From positions 32,001 through 96,000 of the forward strand of contig JAHPZA010000003.1 of the NCBI GenBank assembly GCA_019058445.1: a stretch of DNA of 64,000 nt. Direction: 5' to 3'. This stretch comes from Promethearchaeota archaeon (GTDB lineage Archaea; Asgardarchaeota; Lokiarchaeia; Sigyniarchaeales; SOKP01). The position numbers were made by a program, and so were the translations under genes. Below, in pieces: positions 6,076-61,162 of the stretch; within the stretch, counting starts at the first letter, position 1, and the number at the start of each line of letters is the position of its first letter. The notes under the pieces are model-generated. The model was not told the DNA's origin. It worked only from the letters and a program-made list of their open reading frames with translations, and did no database searches.

Positions 6076-6166
6076 GAACAAAATCTTTTTTTTACTTTTT
6101 TAATTAGAATAAGAATCGTAAGTTCGCTCTAAAATTTTAAATATTTTTATATAGATTCTAGATTAG

Positions 6167-44015: not shown

Positions 44016-44792
44016 ATGGTGAAAAAAGAAGTGGCAATAGATTACGAACAAGCAGTTAAAGATTTAAAAACGGAATCTGATATAAAGTCTGTAGCGGTTA
44101 TTGAAGGAAAATACAAAATCGTATATTCAACGGAAGATTGGGATATAAGTGGAGATATTAAGAAGCTTGTTGGAATTTGGGACTCAATGCATGGAAAGTC
44201 TTTAACGGTTTCTGAAAATAAATATTCAATCCTTCAAGCTACGCCGGAAAGATTAGTGGCAACTTCAATTAAAGGAAAAGGGCATATTTTGGGAGCTAAG
44301 GATGATGAAAGAAAGGTTATCGTTTATGCAAAACCAAAAGGGAATATGCTGACTGCTTATACTGCTGCTGCCAGAGCATTAGAAGCAATGAGCTCGAAAG
44401 AGCCTTATATGGATGAAAAGACAGAATTAGGAAATGTAGAAAAATTTCCTTCGGAATGGGATACTCCAAGATTAAGAGAAGAAATGATGAAAGGTCTCAT
44501 AGAGTTCTTTACAAAAGGCGGAAAACTTGAAAGAGTTGATGAGACTGATTTAAAGCGCAGAGAAAAAGAAAGAGGACAGAGAATGGAAGAATTAAGTAAA
44601 GTATTACATGCATTAGAAATAACCAAGGAAGAAAAAGATAAACTGGTAAGTATCACAATAAAATCGAAATTTGTTACTGATTACATCTATGATGATTTCC
44701 AACTGTTAAGAGTGAAACATAAAATTGAGAAACTCATTGAGAAAGAGTTTCAAGTGCATGATATTGAGACGAGAATTGTGAAAAAAATATAA
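44016..44792 (+). CDS. Asgard profilin-like protein with a ~130-aa C-terminal extension
   Basis: Residues ~8-125 (SVAVIEG..IVYSTEDWDISGDI...SLTV...KYSILQATPERLVATSIKGKGHILG...IVY) match the pattern I recall for Lokiarchaeal profilins (TxxWD, KY, TxER, GKGHI). Confidence 0.72.
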   Translation: MVKKEVAIDYEQAVKDLKTESDIKSVAVIEGKYKIVYSTEDWDISGDIKKLVGIWDSMHGKSLTVSENKYSILQATPERLVATSIKGKGHILGAKDDERKVIVYAKPKGNMLTAYTAAARALEAMSSKEPYMDEKTELGNVEKFPSEWDTPRLREEMMKGLIEFFTKGGKLERVDETDLKRREKERGQRMEELSKVLHALEITKEEKDKLVSITIKSKFVTDYIYDDFQLLRVKHKIEKLIEKEFQVHDIETRIVKKI

Positions 44793-44834
44793 GGTTACTA
44801 GTTTTTAAGTTAAAATTAAAGCCGAAACAGCAGA

Positions 44835-46268
44835 CTATTTTATTTTTTTAAGATTAGCAAAGTCTACAATATGTTTCGGTATTCTATAACTTGGACTTTT
44901 AATTTGAGCGGCACCACTTTCAATAGCTAATCTTGGCATGCCATACAAAATACATGTTTCTTGGGATTCGGCAATTGTTTTTCCTCCGATTCGTTTAATT
45001 GCCTCTAATCCATCGACACCATCCTCTCCCATACCGGTCAGTAAAATTCCCAAGGTTTTTTTTCGAAAGACTTTACAAGCAGAAAAGAATAACACGTCAA
45101 TTGAGGGAATACAATAATGCACTGGGTCACCTGAAAATATGTGGATACAAGGCTTATTATTTTTAACAAAAATTGACATGTGTCTGCCACCTGGTGCAAA
45201 ATAGACAATTCCTGGTTGAAGATACTCTCCTTCAATGCCTACCTTAATATGAATGGGACAAGTCTCATTTAAACTGCTAATGAAAGAATGAATAAATGGA
45301 TCGCTTAAATGTTGGACTACTAAAATTGGACATGAGATATTAGGAGGAATCTCCTTTAATACGGTTTTTAATGTTCGTGGACCGCCTACACTCGCTCCAA
45401 TAACAATTACATTAGATCCTAAATGAACCCCTTTTAATGGGGTTAGATCGGTTCTTTCTAATACTTTATTTCTTTTTATTTCTTTCTTTAAAATAGATTT
45501 TGATTTATGCGTTAAAGGATGAATTGCGTTTTCTGGTTTTTTGACTGAAATTTTTATCGAATGCTTTGCTTTTTCAGCTTTTGTTTCTTTAACTTCTTTT
45601 TGTTTGATTGATTCTTTAATTCCTTCCTTTTGTATCGACTTTTGCGCCTCAACTTTCTTAGTTTTTGGCTTTATTTTAACTTCTGTTGTTTCATTGGATT
45701 TTTTCACGCTGGTCAAGTCTAATTTATTGGTCTCCTCTGTTTCTAGTATAGGTTTTAATTCATTTATGTATTTACCAAATTTAAAAATCTCACTCACTAG
45801 CTCTTGTCGAATATAGGTCTTTTTAATTATGCTATTTTCTTTTTCAAATATTCTTTTAATTTGGGACTTCGAGGCTAGAAGAACTTTAGCAAGCAGTTCT
45901 TCTTTAAACCTTGGTAAATTTTTTGCTCCTAATCCTCCCGGTTTAATTACATAATCAAAGGCTCCCATTAATAACGCTTGGATTGAAGTATCCATAGTTT
46001 GAGGATTAACTGCTGATAAGATAATTGTCGGAGTAGGATTATAGTCCATTATTTTTTTAAAGGCATCAAGACCGTTCATTTCGGGCATAATTAAATCAAG
46101 GATTAATACATCTGGATGATGTTTTTTTACTAAATTTATTGCCTCTACTCCATTTTTTGCATAATCAGCAATTTTAATTGTTTCATCAATTGAAAGAATA
46201 TTTGTAATCGATTTTCTTAAAAACTCTGAATCATCAGCGATTATAACGCTTATTGTCTCACTACTCAT
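44835..46268 (-). CDS. cheB: Chemotaxis methylesterase CheB (REC + long Lys-rich linker + esterase)
   Basis: REC domain ADDS..LDLIMP..KP; esterase triad GASVGGP, VQHL, TGMGEDG; YGMP. Confidence 0.93.
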   Translation of the reverse strand: MSSETISVIIADDSEFLRKSITNILSIDETIKIADYAKNGVEAINLVKKHHPDVLILDLIMPEMNGLDAFKKIMDYNPTPTIILSAVNPQTMDTSIQALLMGAFDYVIKPGGLGAKNLPRFKEELLAKVLLASKSQIKRIFEKENSIIKKTYIRQELVSEIFKFGKYINELKPILETEETNKLDLTSVKKSNETTEVKIKPKTKKVEAQKSIQKEGIKESIKQKEVKETKAEKAKHSIKISVKKPENAIHPLTHKSKSILKKEIKRNKVLERTDLTPLKGVHLGSNVIVIGASVGGPRTLKTVLKEIPPNISCPILVVQHLSDPFIHSFISSLNETCPIHIKVGIEGEYLQPGIVYFAPGGRHMSIFVKNNKPCIHIFSGDPVHYCIPSIDVLFFSACKVFRKKTLGILLTGMGEDGVDGLEAIKRIGGKTIAESQETCILYGMPRLAIESGAAQIKSPSYRIPKHIVDFANLKKIK

Positions 46269-46333
46269 ATTTTAGAAAACCTCTTTGTTCTTTATTTTTT
46301 TTCTTAATATTTTGTCCCTTACTTTAATGATAT

Positions 46334-47299
46334 TTATATCCCTAAATTTGATGTTAAACACATAAAAAGTTCATCTAAACCCTCTCCTGTCAAAGCGGAA
46401 GTTTCAAAAAATTGAAAGTTATATCGGTCAGCAAATTTGTAGGCATTGCTTCTGATTTCTTCTCTATTCTCTACTTTATCAATTTTATTCCCTACAATTA
46501 TGTAAAGGATCGAAGAATTTTTGATGAAATGGCGGGCTTCTTCAATCCACTCGTTAATCATTCCTAATGTTTCTTGTTTAGAATAATCGAATACAATTAG
46601 AACTGCCTTTGAGTGGTTATAGAAATGCCTACGTATCTTTGCAAAACTTTTTTTGCCTCCTAAGTCAAACAGTGAAAATGTTATTTTCATATCTTTCAAA
46701 ATTTGAAGTTCTTTTTCAATTATTGAAAGACCTATAGTAGGTTTATATTGCTCAATAAATTCACCATTAACAAACATGTTTGCTATGGCACTTTTGCCCA
46801 CATTATCTGGTCCAATTAGTACAATCTTATTTATTGAATTTTTACTATTAGAATGGTTGTTGGATTCTAGTTCTACGTTTCCGCCATTAACAAGATTAGG
46901 AAGTTTCGTCGAAATTTTTCGATCATTTAGAATTTGTGATGCTTTTTCTGCCACAATGTATGAATACGGGATAAATTTGTCAATATCAGAGTAAGCATCT
47001 GCTACTAATACAAATAATGCTCTAGTTGGTCCAACATTTCCCAGTTCTAAATAGAACAAACGATAGTCATTAGTATCAAATGTACCACTGCCATAAGATG
47101 TATCGGCGAATCTTTTAATTTTATTAAGAGCCCCTTCAAGGATGCTCATAATCGCTCCAATAATCTCTTCATTAAAATTTTTTACTGATTGGCGAGCAAT
47201 AATTAATCCATCCAAATCTACAATTAACGTAGCAATTAATTCATCAACTTTTTTCAAAAAATTGGCTAACAATTCTTCTAATAGCGTGACGCGCAACAT
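46334..47299 (-). CDS. Roadblock (MglB-like) domain fused to a Rab-like small GTPase, inside the che cluster
   Basis: N-terminal LIATLIVDLDGLIIA...IIGAIMS. GTPase motifs GPDNVGKS, YKPTIG, FDLGGK, NKID, ETSA. Confidence 0.85.
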   Translation of the reverse strand: MLRVTLLEELLANFLKKVDELIATLIVDLDGLIIARQSVKNFNEEIIGAIMSILEGALNKIKRFADTSYGSGTFDTNDYRLFYLELGNVGPTRALFVLVADAYSDIDKFIPYSYIVAEKASQILNDRKISTKLPNLVNGGNVELESNNHSNSKNSINKIVLIGPDNVGKSAIANMFVNGEFIEQYKPTIGLSIIEKELQILKDMKITFSLFDLGGKKSFAKIRRHFYNHSKAVLIVFDYSKQETLGMINEWIEEARHFIKNSSILYIIVGNKIDKVENREEIRSNAYKFADRYNFQFFETSALTGEGLDELFMCLTSNLGI

Positions 47300-47428
47300 T
47301 TTTAATTTATTCTAACTTTAAGTTAGAGAATTTATACTCAAAATCTTAATATTTTAGCTATTTTTAAACTCAATGATAAACAAAAATTTTTATAGCGATA
47401 GAACAACAATAAATTCCTTTCAAATCTA

Positions 47429-48610
47429 TTAAGCTCTAGAAAATTTTGACGCATATCTTACTATATAATCCTTAATGTGGTAATTTGGACTTATTATTTC
47501 GGCAAAACCATATTTGGCTGCAAATTTTGGCATTCCGTAGAGAATAGCTGTTTCTTCAGATTCTGCAATTGTAACCCCTCCCGATTTTTGAATTGCCCCC
47601 AATCCTTGAACTCCATCCTTACCCATTCCAGTTAACAAAATACCTAAAGTATTTTTATTGAATGCTTTTGCTGCCGAATAGAATAACACATCAATAGAAG
47701 GTTTACAAAAATTAACCGGTTCCCCATTAAAGATTCTGATTGTTGGAGATCTTAAGTTCCTATTTTTTACCATAATTTCCATGTGTTTGTCCCCTGGAGC
47801 AATATAAATATATCCAGATTTAATTATTTCACCATTATTTGGAATTTTTACTTTTAACTTGCACAAATCATTCATTGATTCAGCAAATTGATTCATAAAA
47901 AAGAGATTTAGATGTTGTACAATGAATATAGATCCTGGAAAATTTGAGGGAATTCCCTTCAAGATTGATTTTAAGGTTTTGGGACCACCTACACTGGATC
48001 CCATGACTATGATGCATGGTACCTCAGATCCACTCTTAACTTGCGGGATTTTAGATGCTTTTTCTTGAACAACTACTTTTAAATCATGATGATTTGTGAT
48101 TTTAATAGGGACTATTTTCTCTGAATTTAATTTTTTCTCTAAAATTTCTTTTTTAACCTTAATTTCTGAAGCTAAAAGCACTTTATTTATTAACTGCGTT
48201 TTAAATTTAGGAAATTCCTCTTTCCATACTCCAGTAGGTTTAATAATATAATCAAAAGCTCCCAATAGGAGGGTTTGAATCGAATCATTTAATGTTTTTG
48301 ACGCTTCAGAGGGATTGAGAGCAGAAAAAACGATTGTTGGCACGGGATAATGCTTTGAAAGATATCGATATAACGTAATTCCATCCATTTTAGGCATAAT
48401 TAGATCTAAAAGCAAAACATCTGGATTTGTTTTTTCAATTTTTTCGATGGCTTCTTCTCCATTTCTTGCGATATCAACTACTTCGATTTGAGGGTGTTCC
48501 GAAAGCATATCTGATAATATTTTTCTCTGATAAGAAGAGTCTTCTGCTATGAGGACTTTGACCTTCTTATGTGAACTATCCTCAGTTTTCATGTTCTTGA
48601 GAGCACTCAT
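47429..48610 (-). CDS. cheB: Chemotaxis methylesterase CheB (second copy)
   Basis: REC domain AEDS..LDLIMP..KP; GSSVGGP, VQHL, TGMGKDG; YGMP. Confidence 0.93.
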   Translation of the reverse strand: MSALKNMKTEDSSHKKVKVLIAEDSSYQRKILSDMLSEHPQIEVVDIARNGEEAIEKIEKTNPDVLLLDLIMPKMDGITLYRYLSKHYPVPTIVFSALNPSEASKTLNDSIQTLLLGAFDYIIKPTGVWKEEFPKFKTQLINKVLLASEIKVKKEILEKKLNSEKIVPIKITNHHDLKVVVQEKASKIPQVKSGSEVPCIIVMGSSVGGPKTLKSILKGIPSNFPGSIFIVQHLNLFFMNQFAESMNDLCKLKVKIPNNGEIIKSGYIYIAPGDKHMEIMVKNRNLRSPTIRIFNGEPVNFCKPSIDVLFYSAAKAFNKNTLGILLTGMGKDGVQGLGAIQKSGGVTIAESEETAILYGMPKFAAKYGFAEIISPNYHIKDYIVRYASKFSRA

Positions 48611-48677
48611 AAATGATTCTACTTTAGTCCTTTGAATACCTTAAAATTGATTAAAATAAATAGTTTTAAAACTATTT

Positions 48678-49067
48678 CTAGGCTTTGGCCATAGTGTGCC
48701 TTGTTAGAATTTGTTCCACTTGGTCCTTCTTGAAGGGTTTACGAATAAAATCCTTTGCGCCTAGTTGAGTCGCTTCAAGTATTAAATCCTGTTGGCCAAT
48801 TGCAGACACTACAATAATTGATGCTGTTTTATCAAAGTTTAGAATACCTTTAATGGCATCTAGTCCTCCTAGCTGTGGCATGATAAGATCCATAGTAACC
48901 AAATCTGGCTTTAATTTTTTATATAGTTCAATTGCTTCATTTCCATTTTTCGCTTCTGCAATGACTTCAGCAAAATTAGTGCCGTTTATAATGTTCTTAA
49001 GCATGGCTCTAGTGAATCCAGCATCATCAACAATTAATACCTTTTTTTTGTGATTCTCTTTAGACAT
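48678..49067 (-). CDS. cheY: Chemotaxis response regulator CheY
   Basis: Single REC domain: IVDDAGFTR, VTMDLIMP, VSAIGQ, FIRKPF. Confidence 0.92.
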   Translation of the reverse strand: MSKENHKKKVLIVDDAGFTRAMLKNIINGTNFAEVIAEAKNGNEAIELYKKLKPDLVTMDLIMPQLGGLDAIKGILNFDKTASIIVVSAIGQQDLILEATQLGAKDFIRKPFKKDQVEQILTRHTMAKA

Positions 49068-49159
49068 GTTAACATTCCCCTAATTTTTCATAAAATTTAT
49101 GATAGGTTAATTTGAAAAATTTTCGTACTTTTTGTGAGTTTAACTAAGACGTACTTTTA

Positions 49160-49256
49160 TATAATTTTGATAAAGTAAGTATTTAAAAAATTAATGAAAT
49201 GCAAAATAGTTGCCCAGAATAACACAAAAAATTTGAAAAAAATTTGATTTAAATAT
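49160..49256 (-). promoter_or_regulatory. Duplicated promoter, copy 1 (upstream of cheY-cheB-GTPase-cheB)
   Basis: 34-bp exact match TTGATAAAGTAAGTATTTAAAAAATTAATGAAAT (49167-49200) to 61019-61052, with similarity over ~100 bp. Contains a minus-strand TATA box TTTAAATA. Confidence 0.8.
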
Positions 49257-49313
49257 TAATTCTATTTTGGATTTTGAGAGTTTAAGATCAGTAATCTTAT
49301 CTAAATTACTTAT

Positions 49314-49964
49314 CTATTTAATTTTAAGAAGGTCAAATATTATTTTAATAGTATCTATACTTGGAATAAAACAAATTATCCCATCTATACTTAATTCTTC
49401 AATTTTTATATTTGTGTTAATTATTATTATAGAATCTGTGAGCTCTGAATAATTTGCAGCCACTGAATTACATATTGCGCCAATTGAATCTAAAGCTAAA
49501 ACAGGAACATTAGGAATTAGTTTGATGCCCATTAAATTTGCTAATGAGCTTGCATAATGTCCCGCTAATATATTGCCGATTTCAGAAATGATACTCCTCG
49601 TCAAATCATCTAATTCCTCGATTTCGTGTATATCATCAATAGATATCTCAGAAATCGAATTGATCATGTTAATCATGGATTCTTTAGTAAAGATTTGTAG
49701 TACAGTTAAGTTATGCTTTCCTGTTATATTTGAACAAATTCCAAAGATATTAGTTTCTTGATCGGGAAAAATATTATTTAACTCCCAAAAAGGAATGATT
49801 TTAATGCCAGTTAAAGAAACTTCAACTCGCTTATTAACAAGTTCTGATAACGCAACAACAGCATTACCGGACCCAATATTTCCTAATTCTTTTAACGAAT
49901 CTAACTGCTCAGGACTCAATTTTATTGAGTTATTTACCCCTTCAAGACCTTCATTTAATTTCAT
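49314..49964 (-). CDS. cheC: CheY-P phosphatase CheC
   Basis: Two active-site motifs, DSLKELGNIGSGNA and SIISEIGNILAGHY. Confidence 0.92.
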   Translation of the reverse strand: MKLNEGLEGVNNSIKLSPEQLDSLKELGNIGSGNAVVALSELVNKRVEVSLTGIKIIPFWELNNIFPDQETNIFGICSNITGKHNLTVLQIFTKESMINMINSISEISIDDIHEIEELDDLTRSIISEIGNILAGHYASSLANLMGIKLIPNVPVLALDSIGAICNSVAANYSELTDSIIIINTNIKIEELSIDGIICFIPSIDTIKIIFDLLKIK

Positions 49965-49984
49965 ATTCTTTAAACCTCTAAATT

Positions 49985-50530
49985 TTAATTAATTTTTTTA
50001 GTAATTGTATCTTTGCTTGTTTTTATTTGGATTATATCATCGCCTATATTATATATGATTGTTCTCCCTTTTTTTCCTCCAACTTCCTCAAATAGAATTT
50101 TAATATTTAATGAGCTTAATACTTCTCTTGCGATTTTAATATTTTGCTTACCGATACAGTTAAATTCATTATCAAAAATAGTTGCACCTCCAATCATAAC
50201 TGCTTTTAAATTCTTTAATTTTGCTCCGCTCTGTATCATTTTGTCCACTAAATCTTTTATAGAAGTATTTACAAATTTATGAGGTAATTTTATCTGGGAA
50301 GCTTCTTTATTTTCAGAGGTCGGAAGTAAGACATGGGACATAGCATGTATATGATTTATCGAATCTGTTAACAGAATTGCGATACATGAGCCCAATCCAT
50401 ATATAGAAATCGTTTTGTAGTTTTTATATTTCTTACTCGAGTTTACTAATGCATAATGTGCGATGGGTAAAAAAATCTCTCCGTTTTGATTAGGTTTGAT
50501 TATGCGATCAATTCGTTCTTCATAAACCAT
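49985..50530 (-). CDS. cheD: Chemoreceptor glutamine deamidase CheD
   Basis: GLGSCIAI, SHVLLP, KF, MIGGA, IGKQN, EEVGGKKGRTI. Confidence 0.92.
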   Translation of the reverse strand: MVYEERIDRIIKPNQNGEIFLPIAHYALVNSSKKYKNYKTISIYGLGSCIAILLTDSINHIHAMSHVLLPTSENKEASQIKLPHKFVNTSIKDLVDKMIQSGAKLKNLKAVMIGGATIFDNEFNCIGKQNIKIAREVLSSLNIKILFEEVGGKKGRTIIYNIGDDIIQIKTSKDTITKKIN

Positions 50531-50544
50531 AATGAATTAACTTT

Positions 50545-51444
50545 TTAACTTTTAATATAAAAATGATTCCTTCCATCAAGTAACTTGAGATTGAGATTGG
50601 AATTTAAAAGAGTTTCAGTTTTTCCAAGGACCAATAATCCGCCATTCGTTAATTTATCTTTTAAAATCTTTAATAGTTTCTCTCTAAAACCTCTATTTAT
50701 ATATATCAATAAATATCTACAAAAAATAACATCATACTTTTGAGATCTTTGATGTCCCTTTGTGACATCCTCTATGATAAAATCTACTTTTTTTTTAATA
50801 TCATTGCAAATTAAATATTTGGGTCCTAATCGATCATGAAATTTAGTAAAATATGCTAATTTATATCTCTCAGGAGTTTCTTTTAAAGCCTCTTCACTAT
50901 AGAATCCCATTCGTGCCATTTTAATAATATTACTATCAACATCAGAAGCAACTAGATCATAGGTAGGAAAATCATTGATTTCTTCCCTTAATTGCTCAAG
51001 CATCATAGCTAGAGAATAAGGTTCCTCGCCTGAGGCACATGCACATGACCAAATTTTCAACCCCTCCTCTTTATAAGCATAATCTCTGCGAATTTTGTCA
51101 TAAATAGAAAGCTTAGAGACATCAATATTATCAGAATAATTTTGAAATTTTCCATTTTTACAAGCAAGAATAATCTGACGAAGTTTTTCATAAATTTCGA
51201 TGTTTCTAAAGAAATAAGTATAATTTATAGTAAACCTGTCCAAAAACAATTCAATTTCTTGGGGATTTGATGAAATATAATCAAGATAACTTTGGTCGGT
51301 TGTCAAACCGACTCGAATCATTCGAGCTTTAATCCTTCTTTCAAGAAAATTCCTTCGATAACATTCAAACTCTATACCGGTTGAATCTTTCAATTTTTCT
51401 ATCAAATTGTTGATGGATTTAGGGTTAAATGCTATACTTTCCAT
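50545..51444 (-). CDS. cheR: Chemotaxis methyltransferase CheR
   Basis: RRIKARM, TINYTYFFRN, IWSCACASGEEPYSLAM, ASDVD, DVIFCRYLLIY, LGKTE. Confidence 0.94.
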   Translation of the reverse strand: MESIAFNPKSINNLIEKLKDSTGIEFECYRRNFLERRIKARMIRVGLTTDQSYLDYISSNPQEIELFLDRFTINYTYFFRNIEIYEKLRQIILACKNGKFQNYSDNIDVSKLSIYDKIRRDYAYKEEGLKIWSCACASGEEPYSLAMMLEQLREEINDFPTYDLVASDVDSNIIKMARMGFYSEEALKETPERYKLAYFTKFHDRLGPKYLICNDIKKKVDFIIEDVTKGHQRSQKYDVIFCRYLLIYINRGFREKLLKILKDKLTNGGLLVLGKTETLLNSNLNLKLLDGRNHFYIKS

Positions 51445-51467
51445 TGAATTCTCTTCCTTTAAGAATT

Positions 51468-52037: not shown

Positions 52038-52114
52038 ATCCCTTAGCCATTTTGATATTTTTTGTAAAAATTTGGATTATGTGGGAATTAAAAAAATATT
52101 CCCCATGTTTTTTT

Positions 52115-54025
52115 TTAAACTTCGTAAAATGTGGAGAGTGTATCTAATAATTCTTGTAAAGTCTCGAGTTCTGGAATAAAGAGAAAAGTGCCCTGAATCT
52201 CAAATTCTTTAATAATAACATTTGTAGTGATTACTAAAGAAAGTTCTTTCATCAATCCAATTTCTTCATTTAGGATTTTAAACAATTTCATGCCGGTATC
52301 TAAACTTATGTCCGGCGGCTCAGTCATCAATCTTATACTTAATAAATTCCCTAAAGCTGTAGTATAATGACTGGCTAATATATGACCGAGTTCTTTCATT
52401 GCATCAATATAAATTTCAGGAAAATCATTGATAGATTTCACGCTTCTTAAATCTATTTTTGCTTTTCCGTTATCACCTATTATGATAGAAGTCAAATTAG
52501 TGATGTCTGGTACTTTAAATAAAGTTAGAACTGTTGCTCTGGTTTTTCCTTGAACTCCACTCCAGGAGACAAATAATTTCATATTTTTCTTGCTCATTTT
52601 TTTGGCAAACTGATCAATAGAAACGACCTCTACTGAGGGAATATTGATATCTACTCGCTTATTTATCATTTTTGCTAAGGCGTTAGCAGCATTACCAGCA
52701 CCAATGTTTCCAACTTCTCTTAAAGCATCTTTCTGAATATCTGTAAGTTCTAAGTCAATGAATTTATCGAGCGCTCCTCCCGGTTTAACAGGTTCAACCT
52801 TATCATAGATATCTAATTTATTGAATAGACTTTTTATAGCTTTTAAGTCTGGTATATAGAAAAAGATACCATTCATCTGTAAATCAGTAACTTTAATTGC
52901 TGTTTTTATAATTACCACATATTCAGATTGCTCTTGAAGCTCTTTAGCTAAGAAATTTCCTAAATTGCCCGCATTGCTCATAGCAAATTCAGGAACATCA
53001 AAAATCATTTTTGTATTTAATAAATCTGCTAATGCTGAAGCATAATGTCCCGCGAGAATATTTCCAAATTCCGTGACTGTAGAAATAGCAAAATCATCTA
53101 AATCTTTTTTAGTTTTTACTTTATCCGGATTAATCTTTGACTTTTTGCCCGCTAGATCTGCTATTAATTTCATTAATGGAGTTAATTCAAACACTTGAAG
53201 TATTGTAGATAATGAAGGCTTTCTTATATGCGAAAATATTCCACAGACAACTTCTGACTCATTACCAAATTGACGAGGTAACTGTTCTAGAGAAATAATA
53301 CCAACATCCGTAAGATCTACATCTATTCGTTTATTTATTAATCTTGAAAGAGCTGTGACTGCATTTCCACTTCCAATGTTCCCTACCTCCTGTAGTGTAT
53401 CTTTTTGCATTTTGGTAAGCTTCACTATATCGTGAACTATCGGCTGATGTGGTTTATCACTTGAAGGGATTATAATATCTTCAGTTCTTATTCTAGCAGG
53501 AAGCTTTTCTGGGATATAACGCTCTGGTAATTGATTGATATCTTGAGAATTTCTCATTAATTGTTGATCAGGAGCTAATGGAACTATTAATGACTCAAGA
53601 TCTAAAACAACATATGTTTCCTCATCTAAGACTCCTACAGATCTAATGTATTTCATATCAATTTCAGTCTTGATAATCGCAGATTTATTCTGAAAAATTG
53701 AAATTGGGACTTCTCTCATGCTAATAACTGAATCCACATAGAGTGCAATATTAATATCCTGTAATTCTAATAAAACTAAGCGAGTATTTTTTGATAACTT
53801 TAAATGATCTCCATTTGAGTGAATCCTTTGTCCCATGGCTATTATTGTATAAATCTCCCCTCTAACATCAGCAATTCCCACAATTGATCTTTCTGCTAAA
53901 GGGATTGGAATAATTAATTCTGGAACATAAATTTCTCTTACATCTGTTATTTCAAGAAAATATATTCGATCATCTACATTAATTTCTACTAATTTTATTG
54001 TTTGTACATATTCGTTTTCTAACAT
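52115..54025 (-). CDS. CheW-CheC-CheC fusion protein
   Basis: N-terminal CheW (VREI..P..IIPIP....IVGIADVRGEI, ALYVDSV, VVLDL), then two CheC domains (DTLQEVGNIGSGNA / TEFGNILAGHY and DALREVGNIGAGNA / KELGHILASHY). Confidence 0.88.
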   Translation of the reverse strand: MLENEYVQTIKLVEINVDDRIYFLEITDVREIYVPELIIPIPLAERSIVGIADVRGEIYTIIAMGQRIHSNGDHLKLSKNTRLVLLELQDINIALYVDSVISMREVPISIFQNKSAIIKTEIDMKYIRSVGVLDEETYVVLDLESLIVPLAPDQQLMRNSQDINQLPERYIPEKLPARIRTEDIIIPSSDKPHQPIVHDIVKLTKMQKDTLQEVGNIGSGNAVTALSRLINKRIDVDLTDVGIISLEQLPRQFGNESEVVCGIFSHIRKPSLSTILQVFELTPLMKLIADLAGKKSKINPDKVKTKKDLDDFAISTVTEFGNILAGHYASALADLLNTKMIFDVPEFAMSNAGNLGNFLAKELQEQSEYVVIIKTAIKVTDLQMNGIFFYIPDLKAIKSLFNKLDIYDKVEPVKPGGALDKFIDLELTDIQKDALREVGNIGAGNAANALAKMINKRVDINIPSVEVVSIDQFAKKMSKKNMKLFVSWSGVQGKTRATVLTLFKVPDITNLTSIIIGDNGKAKIDLRSVKSINDFPEIYIDAMKELGHILASHYTTALGNLLSIRLMTEPPDISLDTGMKLFKILNEEIGLMKELSLVITTNVIIKEFEIQGTFLFIPELETLQELLDTLSTFYEV

Positions 54026-54050
54026 AGTAAATACTCTACCTCTTTAATTT

Positions 54051-54887
54051 TCAAATGTCATTTTTAATGATAATTCCTTTCCAAATGAGTTCTTTTTCCC
54101 TTTCTTCTTTAGAATGTTCAGAAAAAAAATCGGGTTGTTTAAATATTGAAATTTGACCCCCATTCGAGAATTCATACACATAATCTAGCATATCATCCAT
54201 ACTTGTGAAGTTAAAGCCTGCTATGCTCAATTCGGAATTGTTAACTATTAATAAATCCTCACTATTGAATAGGGTATATTCATCGTTAATTTCTAACCAT
54301 AATTCAGGAATTATCTCTTTTTTATCAATTGTAATTATATCATCCAGGGGTATATCCCGATACGTTTTATTTGTAGCAAAAATTATCTGGTCTGGAATAG
54401 TTTTAAGGAGTTTAGCAGTTTTATTAATCCCCTCTATTGCTTGAGTATATTTTTGTGAATCGAAGACATCATAGCACAAAACAAAAATAACTCCGCCTCC
54501 ATCTAATTTAGCTATTAAATCTACCACGTTTTCTGCATCTGAAGTTGGATTAATTTGTATATTCTCTACAAAAATATCACGAATATACTTAAAATATTGA
54601 TAAAATCTCCATTTCACTGCAGATTTATCATTTATCTCTCGACTAATGAAAGTCTGATAGAGATTTTGTAACTGCTTCTCTGATAGTTTTGAATAATCAG
54701 CGCTCGTGTCATAGTCATCCCCAATATTAACAAATTCATTTGATTTATTTGATTTTGATTTTTTCGCAACTTCATCTACATAAATCTTAAGTTCCTCTAT
54801 AGTAAATCCAGGCGCAATATATTCTACTAAATAAAGCAATCTCTTTTTGGATTTATCCTGTAATAAATCATAATATTGTATTGTCAT
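54051..54887 (-). CDS. Hypothetical cytoplasmic protein in the che operon
   Basis: 278-aa ORF with a GGAG ribosome-binding site and 25-31 bp gaps to its neighbours. No family recognised. Confidence 0.7.
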   Translation of the reverse strand: MTIQYYDLLQDKSKKRLLYLVEYIAPGFTIEELKIYVDEVAKKSKSNKSNEFVNIGDDYDTSADYSKLSEKQLQNLYQTFISREINDKSAVKWRFYQYFKYIRDIFVENIQINPTSDAENVVDLIAKLDGGGVIFVLCYDVFDSQKYTQAIEGINKTAKLLKTIPDQIIFATNKTYRDIPLDDIITIDKKEIIPELWLEINDEYTLFNSEDLLIVNNSELSIAGFNFTSMDDMLDYVYEFSNGGQISIFKQPDFFSEHSKEEREKELIWKGIIIKNDI

Positions 54888-54918
54888 TTTTTTTCTCCTT
54901 TATTTATTTAATATACAT

Positions 54919-56940
54919 TTAACCAAAGAAATATGATTCTAAATCAGAAATACTCATTTTTTCTTCTCCTTTATTTTTCAGATAGTACATAATTTCTTTT
55001 TCTTGATATGCTAACACATTTTTAATAGAGAATGAGATTATATACTCATTTTCTTCTTTAGATTTTGAAACTTTATTTTCGGTATTTGAAGATACTAATT
55101 CAAAGGTATCTGGTATTGTGTCTGTTATTAATACATCCTTTATTTCCACATTCGAATTATTTCTCATTGTAATACTTATCGCAAATTCATCTGCATCACG
55201 TCCAGGAAAGATTTCTTTTCCAATTGTCAGATTACGACGCTTATGTGTGACCTTTATCTTAGGTTTTTTCATGTCTGATAAGATATTTTTCACTACATAA
55301 TATTCAGGTATTTCGATTTCTGCCAGATTCTTGTTTTTTATATAATAACAGCTGACTTCTAACGGAAATTCATATGCTTTATTATAATCTGGAGTCATTG
55401 CCCGAATTGGATATGTCAGTTCTAATTGTCCATTTATCCCTATTAAATCCCTTATTTGATTATTCGTTAAATTTATAATTAATTCTAAAGCATGTTCCTT
55501 AGATGGATCATCATCTTGAGGTGTAATTTTGAGGGTAATATCATCTATTTTCATGTCTCCTGAAGAGTTTTTAAGCTTAATTTGTGCAAGATCAATAGGA
55601 GGCTTAAAATCTTCTGGAATTGTCTCATTAATTATAATACCTTTAATAGGAACAATGCCCGTATTATGAATAATAATTTTATTAAATAATTCTGATTCTT
55701 CAAATGACTTGATTTCTTTTTGAGAGATATCTTTTTCAAAATAAAATCCTATCACTTCAATTGTTGTATCTTCCACTTGTAAGCTTACATTAGTGTTTCT
55801 CTCAATAGCATAATCCAATGAATAAGTTAGCTTTCTTGAAAATTTAGGTTCATTCTCCTCATGAAGTTCCCATTTATTAGTATTAAATGTTTCACCAGGT
55901 CGTAAAATAACTTTATTTCCTTCCTTAGTCATATCTAAATCTACATATTTTGTAGATCTCGTTTTATCGGTAATTAAAACGTTTTTCAATTGCATAGTAA
56001 AATCACTATGATTCGCAAAGATAAATGAGCATTCCCATTGATTTGGTTCTGTTTCTTTCTCTTCCACATCTATGACATGCTTTGCGTGGGAATATGCTGA
56101 GAATTCTTTAATATCAGTTTCTGAGACAATATAATTTTCTAATTCATATGTCATAGTAATAATCCCCGTCCTAATCTGCTTATTTTTTTCTGGAATTATT
56201 TTAGCTATAATAATTACCTGTCTCTGTTCTCCAGGTTTTAATTCTCCTAAATTCCAAGATAATTTATTGTTTTTAATTTTTATATCTGCTTTCGAGTCGC
56301 TTGAACATTCTAAATCATAAAAATCCTTAGGAATTTCTTTTTCAGCATGAATATTTTTAATGATATAATTTGATTGATTATGTAAATCAATTAAAAATTT
56401 AACTGTATTTTCTTGACCAAATAACAAAATATATCGATCATCTTGACCAATCATAGGAATTTCTGTAAAATCCTTTACTGCTTTTATATCCTTATTAAGA
56501 ATCTCTATTGATTCATAAATCTTAAGAGGATCTGATAGATCATCTAAACTACTAATGTTGTATCTAATATTCTTATTAGTTTGTGGTTCAAATATCCCAA
56601 GACTCAACTCATTTTGAATATCTAAATTGGTATATTGAGAGCCTAAGATTTGAATGCGAGTATCCCACATTCGATCTTTATATGAATTATTTATTATTGA
56701 TACATTGCCATAGCCATTAGCAGATTTTCTTTGCATAGTATGATCATACTGAAATTCTAAAGTTTCCTCATTAACTATTGTAATTTCAGATATACTTTCT
56801 GCTGTTTTTGAAATTTGAACCTCATTTGTTTCATATTTTCCTAAGTGCTTTGTTTCTTCCATAAATTTGAGAGGTACTCCCAAAAAATTTGGACCGATTT
56901 TGGTCCTTAATTCAGTTTGATTAATGCATTTAAATCCCAT
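54919..56940 (-). CDS. Multi-beta-sandwich (DUF11/Ig-like repeat) protein with no signal peptide or TM helix
   Basis: Recurring motifs: IDLHNQSNYIIKNIHAEKEIP..F, IIIHNTGIVPIKGIIINETIP..F, ITMRNNSNVEIKDVLITDTIP..F, and SWNLGELKPGE. Confidence 0.65.
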   Translation of the reverse strand: MGFKCINQTELRTKIGPNFLGVPLKFMEETKHLGKYETNEVQISKTAESISEITIVNEETLEFQYDHTMQRKSANGYGNVSIINNSYKDRMWDTRIQILGSQYTNLDIQNELSLGIFEPQTNKNIRYNISSLDDLSDPLKIYESIEILNKDIKAVKDFTEIPMIGQDDRYILLFGQENTVKFLIDLHNQSNYIIKNIHAEKEIPKDFYDLECSSDSKADIKIKNNKLSWNLGELKPGEQRQVIIIAKIIPEKNKQIRTGIITMTYELENYIVSETDIKEFSAYSHAKHVIDVEEKETEPNQWECSFIFANHSDFTMQLKNVLITDKTRSTKYVDLDMTKEGNKVILRPGETFNTNKWELHEENEPKFSRKLTYSLDYAIERNTNVSLQVEDTTIEVIGFYFEKDISQKEIKSFEESELFNKIIIHNTGIVPIKGIIINETIPEDFKPPIDLAQIKLKNSSGDMKIDDITLKITPQDDDPSKEHALELIINLTNNQIRDLIGINGQLELTYPIRAMTPDYNKAYEFPLEVSCYYIKNKNLAEIEIPEYYVVKNILSDMKKPKIKVTHKRRNLTIGKEIFPGRDADEFAISITMRNNSNVEIKDVLITDTIPDTFELVSSNTENKVSKSKEENEYIISFSIKNVLAYQEKEIMYYLKNKGEEKMSISDLESYFFG

Positions 56941-56998
56941 GTTTATTTTGCTCCATTTGATTTATCTTTTATTTTTTATTACATATTTTTGACTAATT

Positions 56999-59089
56999 TT
57001 AATAAATATCATTTAATTGTGAGTATTGCAATTCGTTTAATTTAGAGTTTATAATATTAAAAACATCAAGTATTAAACAAATAGAACCGTCGCTCAGGAT
57101 TGTTGAGCCTGAAATATAGTTGGTAATAGAATATTCTGATTGAAATGGTTTCACCACCGCATCAATTTGTTCAAGAAGCTCATCTGCAATTAATATTGCT
57201 GATGAATTCTCATCTTTCTGACATAAAACTGCCAATTTAGTGTGTGAATTTTTCTTTACTTTACCATTACTATTTAGTTTCAAAAGTTTATCCAATTTAA
57301 TTATGGGTAGAAGACTTGAGTTGATTTTATAATATTTTGACTCTCCAACATACTCCAGAGAATCGGGACTATAAAAATAAATTTGTTTTATGTTTTCCGT
57401 AGGAATCGCGAAGATATCACCTGCGATTTTTAATAATTGTGCCTTAATAATTGCCCTACTAAAGGGTACAATTACTGAGAATTTCGTTCCGATTCCTTTT
57501 TCTGTGAAAATTTGAAAAGAACCTCCAAGTTTTTTAACCTTTTCATCAACAATAGCTAAACCCATTCCTCGTCCAGAGATCATATCTGCATCCGTAAGGG
57601 TTGAAAAGCCAGGCATCAAAAGAAATTTATTCAAAACTTCATTTGAAAGAAGTTCTACCTCGTTGGGAGTGTAATATCCCTTAGCAATGATATTTTCTCT
57701 TATTTTATCATAATTAATCCCTTTTCCATCATCAGAGATTTCAATATAGATTAATCCTGCTCTTCGATATGTCTTTAGTTTTAAGACTCCTGTTTCATTC
57801 TTATTTTTAGAAATCCTTTCTTTTGGTGATTCAATTCCATGATAAATTGCATTTCTAAGAAGATGGACTAATGGTGAATTAAGTTCTTCTAAAATTTTTC
57901 TGTCCATCTCCACATTAATGCCTTCTAGGATGAATTTTATTTTTTTACCTGTTTCTACCGCAACATCACGTACCAATCTTTTATATTTCCTAAAAGTTGA
58001 TTCTACTCTGACAAGTTTTAAGTCAAAAATGATTTCTTGAATATCAAGGAGGGATTTATCAATATTATCAAAAAGGATACTTATCTCCTGATCTTGTCTC
58101 TCCTTGAGTATTTGACTAATTTGATTTTTAATTATGATTAATTCTCCAAAGTAATCCATTAATTTTTCCAATGTATCAATATCAACTTTTATTCTTGAAA
58201 TTGTCGCTCTTTCATTCTGGAAATTGTCTATTATCTTAGACACCGGTTCAATTTCTCCATCAATGATTTCTTCTTCGTAAGTGTTTTCTTTTTCACTTTC
58301 CAGGCTACTTTCAAATGTGTTCTCATCCTGCATCTTTATACTAAAGTTAGTCAGAAGAGCTTCAAATTTGTCATGATTTAACTCTGTTATAACTTTATTA
58401 TCAATTTCAAGGATTTCTTCCAAAATTTGAGAAATTTGGGCTGAATTTTTTTGAGTAATATAGTAAATTTCAAAATCTCTATCAAAATTTCCAATTTCTA
58501 ATAATCGAGGTTCAGGATTACTATAACAAATTTGACCAACTTCATTGAGCGCTCTAAAAATAATAAATAAGCGTACTTTTTTAAATACACAAGTGGCCTG
58601 TAATCTGAGATATATCTTATAATATTTATTATTTTTAACGCTTAGTGTTTGTTTAATTTTATCCTGAGGAATTGGTTTAATAAAGGTAATTTCATATTCA
58701 TTCTCGAAATCATCAAAGGTATCTTTAATTTCGTCTAAAAATTTAACATCAATATCAGTATTATCCCCTTTTTTAAGTCTGCTCACTACTGTTCGAAGAA
58801 CATCAAGACTTTCAAAAAAGATTGAAGTAAATTTACTGATTTTTTCGGTTGAAACTTTATTATCTTTAGCCTTGTTCAAAAAATCTTCTAAAAAATGGCA
58901 GAATTTTGAAACGTTTTCAAAACCTGCCATGGCAGTCAATCCTTTTAAAGTATGGAATGCGAAAAAAAGTTCTTGAACTGGTTTTTTATTGCGAGGATTT
59001 TCTTCTAGCTTGAGAACTTCATCTTCTACTTTTTGGATAAGATCTTCGGATTCATTTATAAAAAGCTGAATATCTTCTTTAGATGCCAT
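56999..59089 (-). CDS. cheA: Chemotaxis histidine kinase CheA
   Basis: Hpt FHTLKG, a P2 domain, dimerization IKVDIDTLEKLMDYFGELII, HATPase HLLRNA.HGIE / DDGKGI / PGFST / SGRGMGL, and a C-terminal CheW-like P5. Confidence 0.95.
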   Translation of the reverse strand: MASKEDIQLFINESEDLIQKVEDEVLKLEENPRNKKPVQELFFAFHTLKGLTAMAGFENVSKFCHFLEDFLNKAKDNKVSTEKISKFTSIFFESLDVLRTVVSRLKKGDNTDIDVKFLDEIKDTFDDFENEYEITFIKPIPQDKIKQTLSVKNNKYYKIYLRLQATCVFKKVRLFIIFRALNEVGQICYSNPEPRLLEIGNFDRDFEIYYITQKNSAQISQILEEILEIDNKVITELNHDKFEALLTNFSIKMQDENTFESSLESEKENTYEEEIIDGEIEPVSKIIDNFQNERATISRIKVDIDTLEKLMDYFGELIIIKNQISQILKERQDQEISILFDNIDKSLLDIQEIIFDLKLVRVESTFRKYKRLVRDVAVETGKKIKFILEGINVEMDRKILEELNSPLVHLLRNAIYHGIESPKERISKNKNETGVLKLKTYRRAGLIYIEISDDGKGINYDKIRENIIAKGYYTPNEVELLSNEVLNKFLLMPGFSTLTDADMISGRGMGLAIVDEKVKKLGGSFQIFTEKGIGTKFSVIVPFSRAIIKAQLLKIAGDIFAIPTENIKQIYFYSPDSLEYVGESKYYKINSSLLPIIKLDKLLKLNSNGKVKKNSHTKLAVLCQKDENSSAILIADELLEQIDAVVKPFQSEYSITNYISGSTILSDGSICLILDVFNIINSKLNELQYSQLNDIY

Positions 59090-59121
59090 ATAATCCCCTT
59101 TATCATTCTTTTTCCATATAT

Positions 59122-59511
59122 TTATTTCTTATCTTTAATTTTTAGAATACGCTCCATAACTTCTACAATCTGTTCAGTTTTGAAAGGCTTTTGAATAAAA
59201 TCTTTAGCTCCTTTTTTTGCCGCTTCAAGTACTAAAGCTTCTTGACCTAAAGCAGATACAACCACGATGATCGCCTTTGGATCAACCTTTAAAAGATCTT
59301 CAATAGTTTCAATGCCTCCCTTTTCAGGCATTACAAGATCCATCGTGACCATATCTGGTTTTAATTTTTTGTATAGGGCAATCGCTTCTTTTCCATTTTT
59401 CGCTTCACCGACGACTTCACCGTAATTAGTTTTTGAAATTATATTCTTCAGAATATTTCGTGTAAATTGGGCGTCATCAACTACCAATATTTTACTTTTA
59501 TTATTTGACAT
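59122..59511 (-). CDS. cheY: Chemotaxis response regulator CheY
   Basis: VVDDAQFTR, VTMDLVMP, VSALGQ, FIQKPF. Confidence 0.92.
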   Translation of the reverse strand: MSNNKSKILVVDDAQFTRNILKNIISKTNYGEVVGEAKNGKEAIALYKKLKPDMVTMDLVMPEKGGIETIEDLLKVDPKAIIVVVSALGQEALVLEAAKKGAKDFIQKPFKTEQIVEVMERILKIKDKK

Positions 59512-59538
59512 TTTTCTAACTCCTATTTTTGGTTAATA

Positions 59539-60063
59539 TTATTTTGTTATTGTTTGTTCTTTTTCTATAATGGTTTGTTCTACTTCAGTTAATATTCTAC
59601 TCAAATCGAGTAAAATTCTAGGTCTATCTTTAAACTTTATAATTCCTTTGATATATTCAATTCCAACACTAGTTTGGAATATTGGACTTAAACCTTCAAC
59701 TAAATCAATATCAATATTGGCTATATCCAAAATACGATCAACTAAAAATCCTGTGTTCACATTATTAACACTAACAATGATGATGTATTTTTTCTCTGAA
59801 CTATATTTTTCTTCATTTTTCTTAGAATCTTGTATTCTATATTCGTTCAGATTTAATTTCTTGCTCAAATTTACAATATGTATAATTTCTCCTCTGTAAT
59901 TATAAATTCCATCAATAAAATCATAACTTTGAGGCAATTTTCTAATTTGGCCTGCCAATATTATTTCTTTAGTATCATAAATATTAATAGCAAATTGTTC
60001 GCCTTCTGTTTCAAATAAAATAACTGAAAGCTTATTTCCTTGAGTATAATATTCTTCTTGCAT
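59539..60063 (-). CDS. cheW: Chemotaxis coupling protein CheW
   Basis: FAINI..TKEII, LPQSYDFIDGIYNYRGEII, GFLVDRI, YIKGI, ILLDL. Confidence 0.9.
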   Translation of the reverse strand: MQEEYYTQGNKLSVILFETEGEQFAINIYDTKEIILAGQIRKLPQSYDFIDGIYNYRGEIIHIVNLSKKLNLNEYRIQDSKKNEEKYSSEKKYIIIVSVNNVNTGFLVDRILDIANIDIDLVEGLSPIFQTSVGIEYIKGIIKFKDRPRILLDLSRILTEVEQTIIEKEQTITK

Positions 60064-60121
60064 ATTTTTTTCTCCTAATCTTTTTTTTACGCATTACAAA
60101 CTTTTTTTTATCTAAATTTTC

Positions 60122-60949
60122 TTACAAATTAAAATATCTGTTAATATTTTTCTCAAATTCGTAAAATGCCGTAATATCTCCATTAAAATTTTCAAGATGG
60201 GTTTTATATTTCTCCAGAAATTCATCAGCCATAAGATACATATATCTTTTAATAAGCGGAGTTATCTTTTCAACTAAGAAAGCAAAAATTACATTTTTCT
60301 TAGTAATCGTGTAAAATAGCTGATTTCCGAAATTTATCTCTTTTAATTTCCCCCCTGTCTCTTTACCGATGACAAATTGTGAAAATGAAAAAAGTGCTGA
60401 AATAAAACCTCCTATTTGAACTTCTCCATCAATAATGTCAGTCCGTTTTCCCATAATTTTTGTAAAAAGTGGACATCCAGCAGTATCAATAATAAAAATA
60501 CCAATTATTCCCTCTATTACAGGTATTTCGATTGAGTTTTTAATAGTATTCTTAATCTCATCGATAGTATGATTATCAGTACAATATTTAATAATACTCT
60601 TAGAGTGTAAATATAATTCAGAATATTGGAGAGTACTTTCTTTTTCATAAAGATAAATTAGAATTAGTTTCTCTAACTCTTTTTTATTCTTGAAAAAGTT
60701 AAGAAATACAGAGAAATCATCTAAAGGAATAATGGAATTTCCACTATCTTTTTTGATTATTTCCATCTTGAAAAGATGTAATATATTTTGTATCATGGGC
60801 ATTCCAATACCAATTTGGTAAAGTACTTCAGAACTAAAATCTTCTGACTCAATGTTTTTGAAAGTAATTTTGATCAAACCAATGCCTAGCACTTCCAACA
60901 TTCTTGGATTATTAACACGTCTGTCCATGCTTATCATCGAGACTACCAA
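60122..60949 (-). CDS. Longin-domain protein, first gene of the che operon
   Basis: The C-terminal half has a longin pattern (GIFIIDTAGCPLF...IGGFISALFSFSQFV...LKEINFGN...IFAFLV...EFLEKY...FNGDITAF..F). The exact start is uncertain. Confidence 0.72.
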   Translation of the reverse strand: MVVSMISMDRRVNNPRMLEVLGIGLIKITFKNIESEDFSSEVLYQIGIGMPMIQNILHLFKMEIIKKDSGNSIIPLDDFSVFLNFFKNKKELEKLILIYLYEKESTLQYSELYLHSKSIIKYCTDNHTIDEIKNTIKNSIEIPVIEGIIGIFIIDTAGCPLFTKIMGKRTDIIDGEVQIGGFISALFSFSQFVIGKETGGKLKEINFGNQLFYTITKKNVIFAFLVEKITPLIKRYMYLMADEFLEKYKTHLENFNGDITAFYEFEKNINRYFNL

Positions 60950-61011
60950 ATTAGCTTTCTATAAATATATCCCCTAAATATACAATAATTCATTTATTGA
61001 TACTTATATTT

Positions 61012-61108
61012 TATAATCTTGATAAAGTAAGTATTTAAAAAATTAATGAAATACAAAATATTACGCTTTAACGATACAAAAAACTCTGAAAAAAAATAAT
61101 TTAAATAT
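61012..61108 (-). promoter_or_regulatory. Duplicated promoter, copy 2 (upstream of longin-cheW-cheY-cheA...cheC)
   Basis: Exact 34-bp match (61019-61052) to 49167-49200; minus-strand TTTAAATA. Confidence 0.8.
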
Positions 61109-61162
61109 AAAACGTTTTCAATAGGATTTTAAAAATTTGAGAGACACGACAAAATAATGATT

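Follow-up and report, generated by a model that had tools for sequence, protein, structure and literature searches.

The stretch of DNA analyzed here, 64,000 nucleotides in length and hereafter called the window, belongs to contig JAHPZA010000003.1 of a Promethearchaeota archaeon (assembly GCA_019058445.1, positions 32,001–96,000) and contains a cluster of chemotaxis (Che) genes interleaved with genes for eukaryote-like proteins. The assembly of the source genome (G000 in our genome set) was 4.61 Mb in length, consisted of 10 contigs, and was 92.6% complete. The listing of open reading frames (ORFs) and Pfam scans revealed 15 co-oriented genes, 10 Che and 5 non-Che, at positions 44835–60949 of the minus strand; the whole unit was 16.3 kb. 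The gene order was P1, CheW, CheY1, CheA, P6, P2, CheW-CheC-CheC, P3, CheR, CheD, CheC, CheY2, CheB1, P5, and CheB2, where the non-Che proteins are designated with P and a number. All genes named in an earlier note on this DNA, which had proposed a Che pathway acting on actin or cell polarity, were found in their places. The genomic data presented below indicate that this cluster is a real, conserved, and lineage-specific chemosensory system of Lokiarchaeia with built-in eukaryote-like accessory genes.

The Che core was represented by CheA, CheW, CheY, CheB, and CheR plus CheC and CheD, and every Pfam match was above the cut-off. CheW (59539–60063, E 4.5e-27), the single-domain response regulator CheY1 (59122–59511, Response_reg, E 1.5e-27), and CheA (56999–59089) were encoded in the first part of the cluster. 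CheA had the domain order Hpt-P2-dimerisation-HATPase-CheW (Pfam Hpt, P2, H-kinase_dim, HATPase_c, and CheW). These genes were followed, after two non-Che genes, by a CheW-CheC-CheC fusion (52115–54025; CheW, E 1.4e-18; CheC in three stretches, E 1.3e-39) and further by CheR (50545–51444; CheR, E 2.4e-42, and CheR_N), CheD (49985–50530, E 1e-24), and CheC (49314–49964, E 2.3e-18). CheY2 (48678–49067, Response_reg, E 2.3e-26), CheB1 (47429–48610, Response_reg and CheB_methylest, E 1.9e-54), and CheB2 (44835–46268, Response_reg and CheB_methylest, E 4.8e-52) were found in the last part; CheB2, a protein of 477 aa with a long linker, was the last gene of the unit. Residues D12, D13, D58, S86, and K108 of CheY1 were invariant across 20 orthologues. 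CheY2 is a paralogue of CheY1 with 71% nucleotide identity (48708–48980 versus 59158–59430), and among the loci read it was seen in the genus of the window genome alone. This CheA was the sole one in the source genome (a single H-kinase_dim match), and the search for methyl-accepting chemotaxis proteins (MCPs) recommended in the earlier note identified 15 genes.

Two non-Che genes, P6 and P2, were located between cheA and the gene of the CheW-CheC-CheC fusion. P6 (54919–56940, 673 aa) consisted of DUF11/CLIPPER repeats (Pfam DUF11, E 4.1e-10; DUF7507 was below the threshold), which form an Ig-like beta-sandwich. Its neighbors in the Atlas were DUF11 proteins of Promethearchaeota and Thorarchaeota. 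No hydrophobic segment was present in P6 (maximum KD19 hydropathy of 1.15).

P2 (54051–54887, 278 aa) is an orphan without a Pfam family. Its AlphaFold2 model, which, like that of P1 described below, was built from a shallow alignment, had a mean predicted local distance difference test score (pLDDT) of 79 and contained a PD-(D/E)xK nuclease-like core at approximately residues 47–201, followed by a C-terminal beta domain. VIA-align gave a Z value of 7.5 to the Card1 nuclease domain and of 5–6.8 to other proteins with the restriction-endonuclease fold; values under 8 are in the range which the tool itself calls common. Overall, the structure comparisons by VIA-align and the Atlas were middling (Z <= 7.5, TM <= 0.46), the Atlas feature search gave a weak nuclease-fold lead (0.86), and no match at E <= 0.001 was found by Foldseek against the PDB. 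We regard the predicted PD-(D/E)xK fold as a lead, not a firm assignment. Moreover, P2 is probably not a nuclease because the E-x-K catalytic motif was not conserved in the alignment. The family is small: a profile search retrieved just 62 clusters among 1.84 billion proteins, and all members on contigs long enough to show neighbors were inside a che cluster. In distant members, including those of sister families of the same order, the neighborhood was MCP-CheW-CheY-(CheB)-CheA-CheD-DUF11 protein-P2-CheW.CheC.CheC.

P3 (51468–52037, 189 aa) is encoded downstream of the CheW-CheC-CheC fusion. The closest protein in the PDB, found by phmmer with the single sequence, was ProGel of Thorarchaeota (7c2f, E 6.7e-5). 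A profile built from 17 orthologues matched ProGel at E 1.8e-7, followed by 2DGel, villin, and CapG, while the Pfam Gelsolin model did not match the protein. The alignment revealed a strongly conserved gelsolin domain (approximately residues 1–105) and, beyond a linker that varied among the orthologues, an amphipathic helix at the C-terminus that was again conserved. Thus, by sequence and profile similarity, P3 can be assigned to the proteins with a gelsolin-homology domain, as the earlier note had suggested. Four Pfam-detectable gelsolin genes and six genes of the actin family were found in the source genome; no match of P3 to plasmids was obtained with tblastn.

P1, encoded at the beginning of the cluster (60122–60949), had no Pfam family; its probable start is ATG at 60937, giving a protein of 271 aa. 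In the AlphaFold2 model (pLDDT 81), two tandem domains were present, each with the topology beta-beta-alpha-beta-beta-beta-alpha. The best Foldseek matches were the multi-longin subunits of Rab guanine nucleotide exchange factors (GEFs), Fuzzy-Inturned and Mon1-Ccz1, as well as single longin domains, such as those of Sec22b, VAMP7, AP2 sigma, and LAMTOR; the Foldseek probability was 1.0 for Sec22b, VAMP7, AP2 sigma, LAMTOR, Mon1-Ccz1, and Fuzzy. The model thus predicts the longin fold twice in P1, in agreement with the longin call of the earlier note. Best-tier relatives of P1 mostly adjoined cheA, and one was also present in each of four genomes where no CheA was found; a paralogue with 35–44% identity was widespread. 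In another Asgard family, a 193-aa ORF without a Pfam family located right after cheD (L044:12180–12761, genome G044) weakly matched the longin profile of P1 (E 2e-4).

P5 (46334–47299) consisted of an N-terminal Roadblock domain (Robl_LC7, E 5.4e-5) fused to a Rab-like GTPase (Ras, E 1.7e-35), as had been noted before. Its best PDB matches were Rab39B, Rab30, Rab21, and a Rab of Thorarchaeota. The G3 motif was DLGGK, without the catalytic Gln: in 12 orthologues DxGG was followed by K, L, A, F, or I but in no case by Q, with G1, G4, and G5 intact. P5 does not belong to the MglA family, considering that its closest solved relatives are eukaryotic and Thorarchaeota Rabs and that G3 lacks Gln. 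Regarding hydropathy, none of the five accessory proteins (P1, P2, P3, P5, and P6) exceeded the segments of the soluble CheY; since they have no hydrophobic segments beyond those of CheY, all five are probably soluble and cytoplasmic.

The source genome encoded approximately 75 Ras-family genes, five of them within the 64-kb window, and because of this number the presence of a GTPase alone is within chance: a single GTPase within a 16-kb stretch was not beyond expectation at the GTPase density of the genome. The four further Ras-family genes of the window are at 11351, 16457, 28587, and 33589 (contig positions 43351, 48457, 60587, and 65589); two of these belong to long ORFs of 530 and 352 aa, and the GTPase density in the window was several times the genome average. 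A 216-aa Ras gene near the cluster of genome G128 and an Arf-like gene in locus L061 were considered as a recurrent GTPase link and rejected as possibly due to chance because they were 5–7 kb off, past genes of the opposite strand.

The conservation of the cluster was analyzed in 161 genomes of the class Lokiarchaeia. CheA orthologues with 50–91% identity over the full length were found in 48 of them: 45 in the family of the window genome (this genome included), 1 in a second family, and 2 in another order. Only distant CheAs, with approximately 25–36% identity, were found in Heimdall-type lineages, in the L. ossiferum-like family, and in one more family of the same order. None of P1, P2, P3, P5, and P6 was identified in the Heimdall-type che clusters. 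The proteins of the window were then mapped onto 20 loci around close CheA orthologues, which represent six genera of the window genome's family plus one more family and one more order.

P6 and P2 were encoded directly after cheA in all 20 loci. The CheW-CheC gene followed P2 in all loci except one on an early-ending contig and that of the closed genome G188; in G128 this gene was split into two ORFs. In G188, which consists of a single contig, the cluster was split in two parts, and the second half was intact elsewhere in the genome (CheW-CheC-CheC, P3, CheR, CheB, CheD, CheC, P5, and CheB2). P1 was located upstream of cheW in 17 of the 20 loci, and P3 was likewise kept in 17; P5 was within the fetched stretch in 11 loci and, for some others, further away on the same contig. 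The additions P1, P3, and P5 were present in the window genome's family, in family f4, and in genome G129. Thus, the expectation of the earlier note that the gelsolin, longin, Roadblock-Rab, Ig-like (DUF11), and orphan genes stay syntenic with cheA was borne out across genera, families, and one further order. P6 and P2 were the most deeply conserved non-Che genes and stood between cheA and cheW-cheC in every cluster; P6-P2-CheW.CheC thus forms the constant core of a Che class of the Loki type.

The co-occurrence of P2, P3, and P5 with CheA was strict; that of P1 was less so. All 41 genomes that encoded P3 orthologues (E <= 1e-29) were CheA-positive, and no such orthologue was present in the approximately 113 genomes without a Loki-type CheA; the other relatives of P3 were weak paralogues (E > 1e-14). 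P2 was single-copy and confined to CheA-positive genomes, and the same was true of the distribution of top-tier P5 (E <= 1e-88, approximately 320 aa), the paralogues of which found elsewhere were of a closely related type of approximately 440 aa and a universal type of approximately 340 aa. Such recurrence of these orthologue groups, with their order kept, in different genera exceeds chance. The sequencing runs holding the cluster were 12 DNA runs of sediment and soil metagenomes, with no RNA run listed. A distant cluster of the Loki type (GCA_054386715.1, L059:13080–15166) ended, after two small ORFs without assignment, with two adjacent Rag-like (Gtr1_RagA) GTPases of 345 and 330 aa; this pair may mean that GTPases became associated with a che cluster a second time, independently.

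The intergenic gaps in the first part of the unit, from P1 through CheC, were 14–77 bp, which confirmed the tight spacing reported in the earlier note, and CheY2 was preceded by a gap of 246 bp. A direct repeat of 103 nt was found on the minus strand upstream of CheY2 (copy 1, 49157–49259) and upstream of P1 (copy 2, 61009–61111). The copies had 80% identity, and a near-identical stretch of 40–50 nt within them contained the TATA-like box TTTAAATA. Such an arrangement fits two co-regulated transcription units, both headed by a promoter-like element.

On one flank of the unit a Macro-domain gene was located (61163–61681, minus strand; Macro, E 6.6e-41), on the other the profilin-like gene P4 (44016–44792, plus strand). 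P4 was convergent with cheB2, as had been noted, and the two stop codons were 42 bp apart. The protein of 258 aa consisted of a profilin domain (residues 1–127) and a C-terminal extension of approximately 130 aa and matched the solved Asgard profilins 5zza (E 1e-10) and 7pbh (E 4.8e-9), so the profilin assignment of the earlier note holds and P4 is, by these matches, a true profilin homologue. Its membership in the system, which the earlier note had implied, did not withstand the comparison of genomes: no P4 homologue was found in the 20 related che loci, and full-length orthologues occurred only in the genus of the window genome, including the CheA-less congeners G170, G173, and G171. In other genera, profilin-domain ORFs of approximately 205 and 420 aa were present in nearly every genome, which suggests that several extended profilin families exist.

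When the corresponding locus of congener G170 (L051, contig C34, positions 5354–6755) was compared with positions 44016–44868 and 61163–61681 of the window, the Macro gene (92% identity) directly abutted the profilin gene (91% identity), and the whole 16.3-kb che unit was gone. The junction retained approximately 30 nt matching the last cheB2 codons; this remnant indicates that G170 lost the unit by one clean deletion, rather than that the unit was inserted in the window genome. The che unit therefore behaves as one block, and since the deletion spared the profilin, the latter is a flanking gene outside the che system. Because the gene order is conserved, the genes strictly co-occur, and the unit is lost whole, a functional tie of the Che core with P2, P3, P5, and P6 is very likely; for P1 such a tie is likely.

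We further analyzed the source genome for possible targets of the pathway. No gene of CheF, archaellin, or T2SSE and T2SSF proteins was matched in the window, confirming the earlier observation that it contains no cheF, archaellum, or type IV pilus gene. In the whole genome, CheF (PF04283), archaellin (PF01917), and T2SSF (PF00482) had no matches, and no homologues of ArlJ, ArlH, and ArlF/G of genome G138 were found by tblastn; the ArlI query of G138 matched only a 24%-identical ATPase. G138 is an L. ossiferum-like closed genome of 6,035,313 bp with an archaellum locus (L066, G138:C1:851000–870900) encoding two ArlF/G, ArlH, ArlI, and ArlJ; this locus was flanked by a tubulin gene, with a gene of a Rag-like GTPase nearby. 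The absence of the archaellum and CheF from the source genome is probable, given an assembly that is 92.6% complete.

As a pointer to another output, however, the lack of CheF says little because the Pfam model, which detected CheF in the control genomes, had no match in 399 of 400 Asgard genomes, including ones with archaella, and was present in one. Some Asgard archaea carry archaella (PMC13705601). Outside the window, a divergent type-IV-filament-like locus was found on contig C7 (67561–74454; L058:7562–14454). It encoded a T2SSE-like ATPase of 732 aa, a pilin-like protein of 140 aa with a hydrophobic N-terminus, a platform-like polytopic protein of 507 aa missed by the Pfam T2SSF model, and a Peptidase_A24; the genes of ribosomal proteins L3 and L4 and a Cdc6 gene adjoined the locus. 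Two T2SSE matches in the genome were considered as archaellum ATPases and rejected: one was a PIN-domain ATPase, and the other was the ATPase of the C7 locus, the same one that was matched by ArlI. Thus, the argument of the earlier note from the missing CheF and archaellum stood in that neither was found in the genome, and was weakened by the general scarcity of CheF and by this locus, which we regard as a possible, though not favored, Che target.

We propose the following mechanism. The operon would have recruited five soluble non-Che proteins working with the Che system, and the 15 MCP receptors encoded elsewhere would control CheA. As no archaellum is encoded, phosphorylated CheY (CheY-P) would act not on this organelle but on the built-in accessory proteins. 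The P6-P2 pair may be an array-associated adaptor or scaffold, filling the role which CheF has elsewhere. In the family of the window genome, the signal would pass on to P5, a Rab-like switch without the catalytic Gln, which the double longin P1 may regulate, and also to the gelsolin-domain protein P3, putatively acting on Lokiactin filaments; a bias of protrusion dynamics or cell polarity would be the end effect. That the accessory proteins carry the Che output to actin or polarity is the reading which we favor, if tentatively. Its narrower form, in which CheY-P directly controls the gelsolin protein, the Rab-like GTPase switch, or both and so steers Lokiactin-driven protrusions or crawling, seems doubtful. 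The interpretation given in the earlier note was close to this; synteny, co-occurrence, and the missing archaellar target speak for it, while the profilin proved to be outside the system and the CheF argument lost weight.

Several observations weigh against an output to actin or polarity. The links between CheY-P and the accessory proteins and between P3 and actin are putative, and the sequence of P3 has diverged beyond what the Pfam Gelsolin model recognizes. Close relatives of P1 occur outside che clusters and in the four genomes mentioned above, in the G128 lineage P6-P2 is retained, whereas a P1 orthologue is missing and the cluster is devoid of P3, and small GTPases are so common that adjacency in single distant loci may be accidental. 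The cluster is patchy, whereas actin and protrusions occur generally. P2, P3, and P6 are all missing from the L. ossiferum-like genome G138, which represents the cultured crawling species and carries an archaellum locus; in the source genome, the type-IV-filament-like machine could be the true target.

Among the alternatives, the accessory proteins might build or position the chemoreceptor array, with the real output being something else; we consider this possible, although somewhat unlikely. The DUF11 rod and P2 would then be structural parts of the array, and the gelsolin, longin, and GTPase would anchor arrays, or place them, along actin filaments or at a cell pole, similar to bacterial systems of the ParC/ParP type. 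The position and depth of conservation of P6-P2 agree with such a role, as do the solubility of all five accessory proteins and the CheW-CheC-CheC fusion, through which a module for CheC phosphatase activity or CheY binding is tethered to arrays. However, gelsolin or Rab-like proteins are not known to place arrays, and strict co-occurrence fits the output and array roles alike. In bacteria, numerous Che-like systems govern processes other than motility, and, with this precedent, the pathway might serve membrane or vesicle traffic, cell–cell contact, or display of surface proteins via P5 and P1, whose closest relatives are trafficking regulators (the Rab GEFs Mon1-Ccz1 and Fuzzy-Inturned and Rab GTPases, respectively). 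This is unlikely, as the full adaptation set (CheR, two CheB, CheD, and CheC) with 15 MCPs is typical of gradient sensing in taxis, and the presence of a gelsolin-domain gene speaks for actin and not for trafficking.

Control of the filament-like machine of contig C7, as in the bacterial Pil-Chp or Tax systems, is in our opinion quite improbable. The locus is present in the source genome, and the machine is truly of the filament type since an orthologue of its ATPase adjoins a T2SSF-matching gene in G129 and G127. On the other hand, the locus stands apart from the che genes, and the ATPase was distributed irrespective of CheA: orthologues were encoded in 117 of the 161 genomes, including all those of genera g2 (5/5) and g6 (4/4), none of which has CheA, and the search for it gave no hit in several CheA-positive genomes, among them the single-contig G188. 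Finally, the embedded genes could be passengers without a functional tie to Che, considering how densely small GTPases and further eukaryote-like genes are packed in Asgard genomes. This is extremely improbable, since at least two orders share the orthologue groups and their arrangement, co-occurrence is strict, and the unit is lost whole.

If CheY-P does directly control the gelsolin protein or the GTPase switch, as in the narrower form above, a prokaryotic two-component pathway would be wired to actin and small GTPases of the eukaryotic type, a state intermediate between bacterial and amoeboid chemotaxis. The gelsolin-helix protein, the Roadblock-Rab-like GTPase lacking Gln, the double longin, the DUF11 rod, and the nuclease-fold orphan are conserved, co-inherited candidates for linking chemical sensing to actin-based behavior in the closest relatives of eukaryotes. 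The cluster also gives rare functional context for one of the numerous small GTPases of the genome and would define a class of Che systems with an adaptor other than CheF. Full-text literature searches retrieved no description of this cluster, and nothing in the searched literature connects sensing to the cytoskeleton in Asgard archaea.

In archaeal chemotaxis of the F1 type (Halobacterium, Haloferax), the adaptor CheF acts on ArlCDE of the archaellum. The system of the window resembles it in the full core of CheA, CheW, CheY, CheB, CheR, CheC, and CheD, in the operon layout, and in receptors encoded elsewhere. Unlike F1-type systems, it is found in a genome without CheF, archaellin, ArlJ, and ArlH, and its operon contains five extra conserved genes and the CheW-CheC-CheC fusion. 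In Myxococcus xanthus, the Frz pathway acts on the polarity module of MglA, a Ras-like GTPase, and MglB, a Roadblock protein. In both cases, a Che-type pathway is associated with a Ras-superfamily GTPase and a regulator of the Roadblock/longin type, and non-flagellar motility is concerned. The GTPase of the window, however, is Rab-like, fused to its own Roadblock domain, devoid of the catalytic Gln, and encoded inside the che operon, and the cluster lacks a FrzZ-type double receiver and RomR. The tie between the Che system and the GTPase is genomic in the window, whereas in Frz it was shown genetically.

Asgard gelsolins bind actin, and five of them co-purify with Lokiactin (PMC13716822). Like ProGel and 2DGel, P3 has a gelsolin-homology domain, one in number, and the source genome has actins of the Lokiactin type; in contrast to them, P3 carries an additional conserved C-terminal helix, goes undetected by the Pfam Gelsolin model, and occurs in che operons only, and its actin binding is putative. 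The same study filmed Lokiactin-dependent crawling of L. ossiferum and did not mention chemotaxis (PMC13716822). The crawling organism does not have the cluster of the window, and crawling evidently does not need it, since P2, P3, and P6 are missing from the L. ossiferum-like genome G138. For Ca. L. ossiferum, Che genes and chemoreceptor arrays were reported, with Che sets in 27 of 97 Loki/Heimdall metagenome-assembled genomes (PMC9834061). Those gene sets are similar to ours in containing cheA/B/C/D/R/W/Y in a Lokiarchaeia genome, in our case along with the MCP genes; that paper lists genes only, and the L. ossiferum-like closed genome differs in having two other che clusters with CheAs 31–33% identical and without P2, P3, and P6, besides its archaellum locus.

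The model of P1 resembles the subunits of the tri-longin Rab GEFs Mon1-Ccz1 and Fuzzy-Inturned but has two longin domains rather than three, in a single small protein. Fusions of Roadblock and GTPase domains were described for strain MK-D1, and Asgard GTPases are generally not found in operons with Roadblock or longin genes (PMC10933270). P5 shares the Roadblock-GTPase architecture of MK-D1, while the cluster of the window, in which this GTPase is encoded together with a double longin protein, is an exception to that operon rule.

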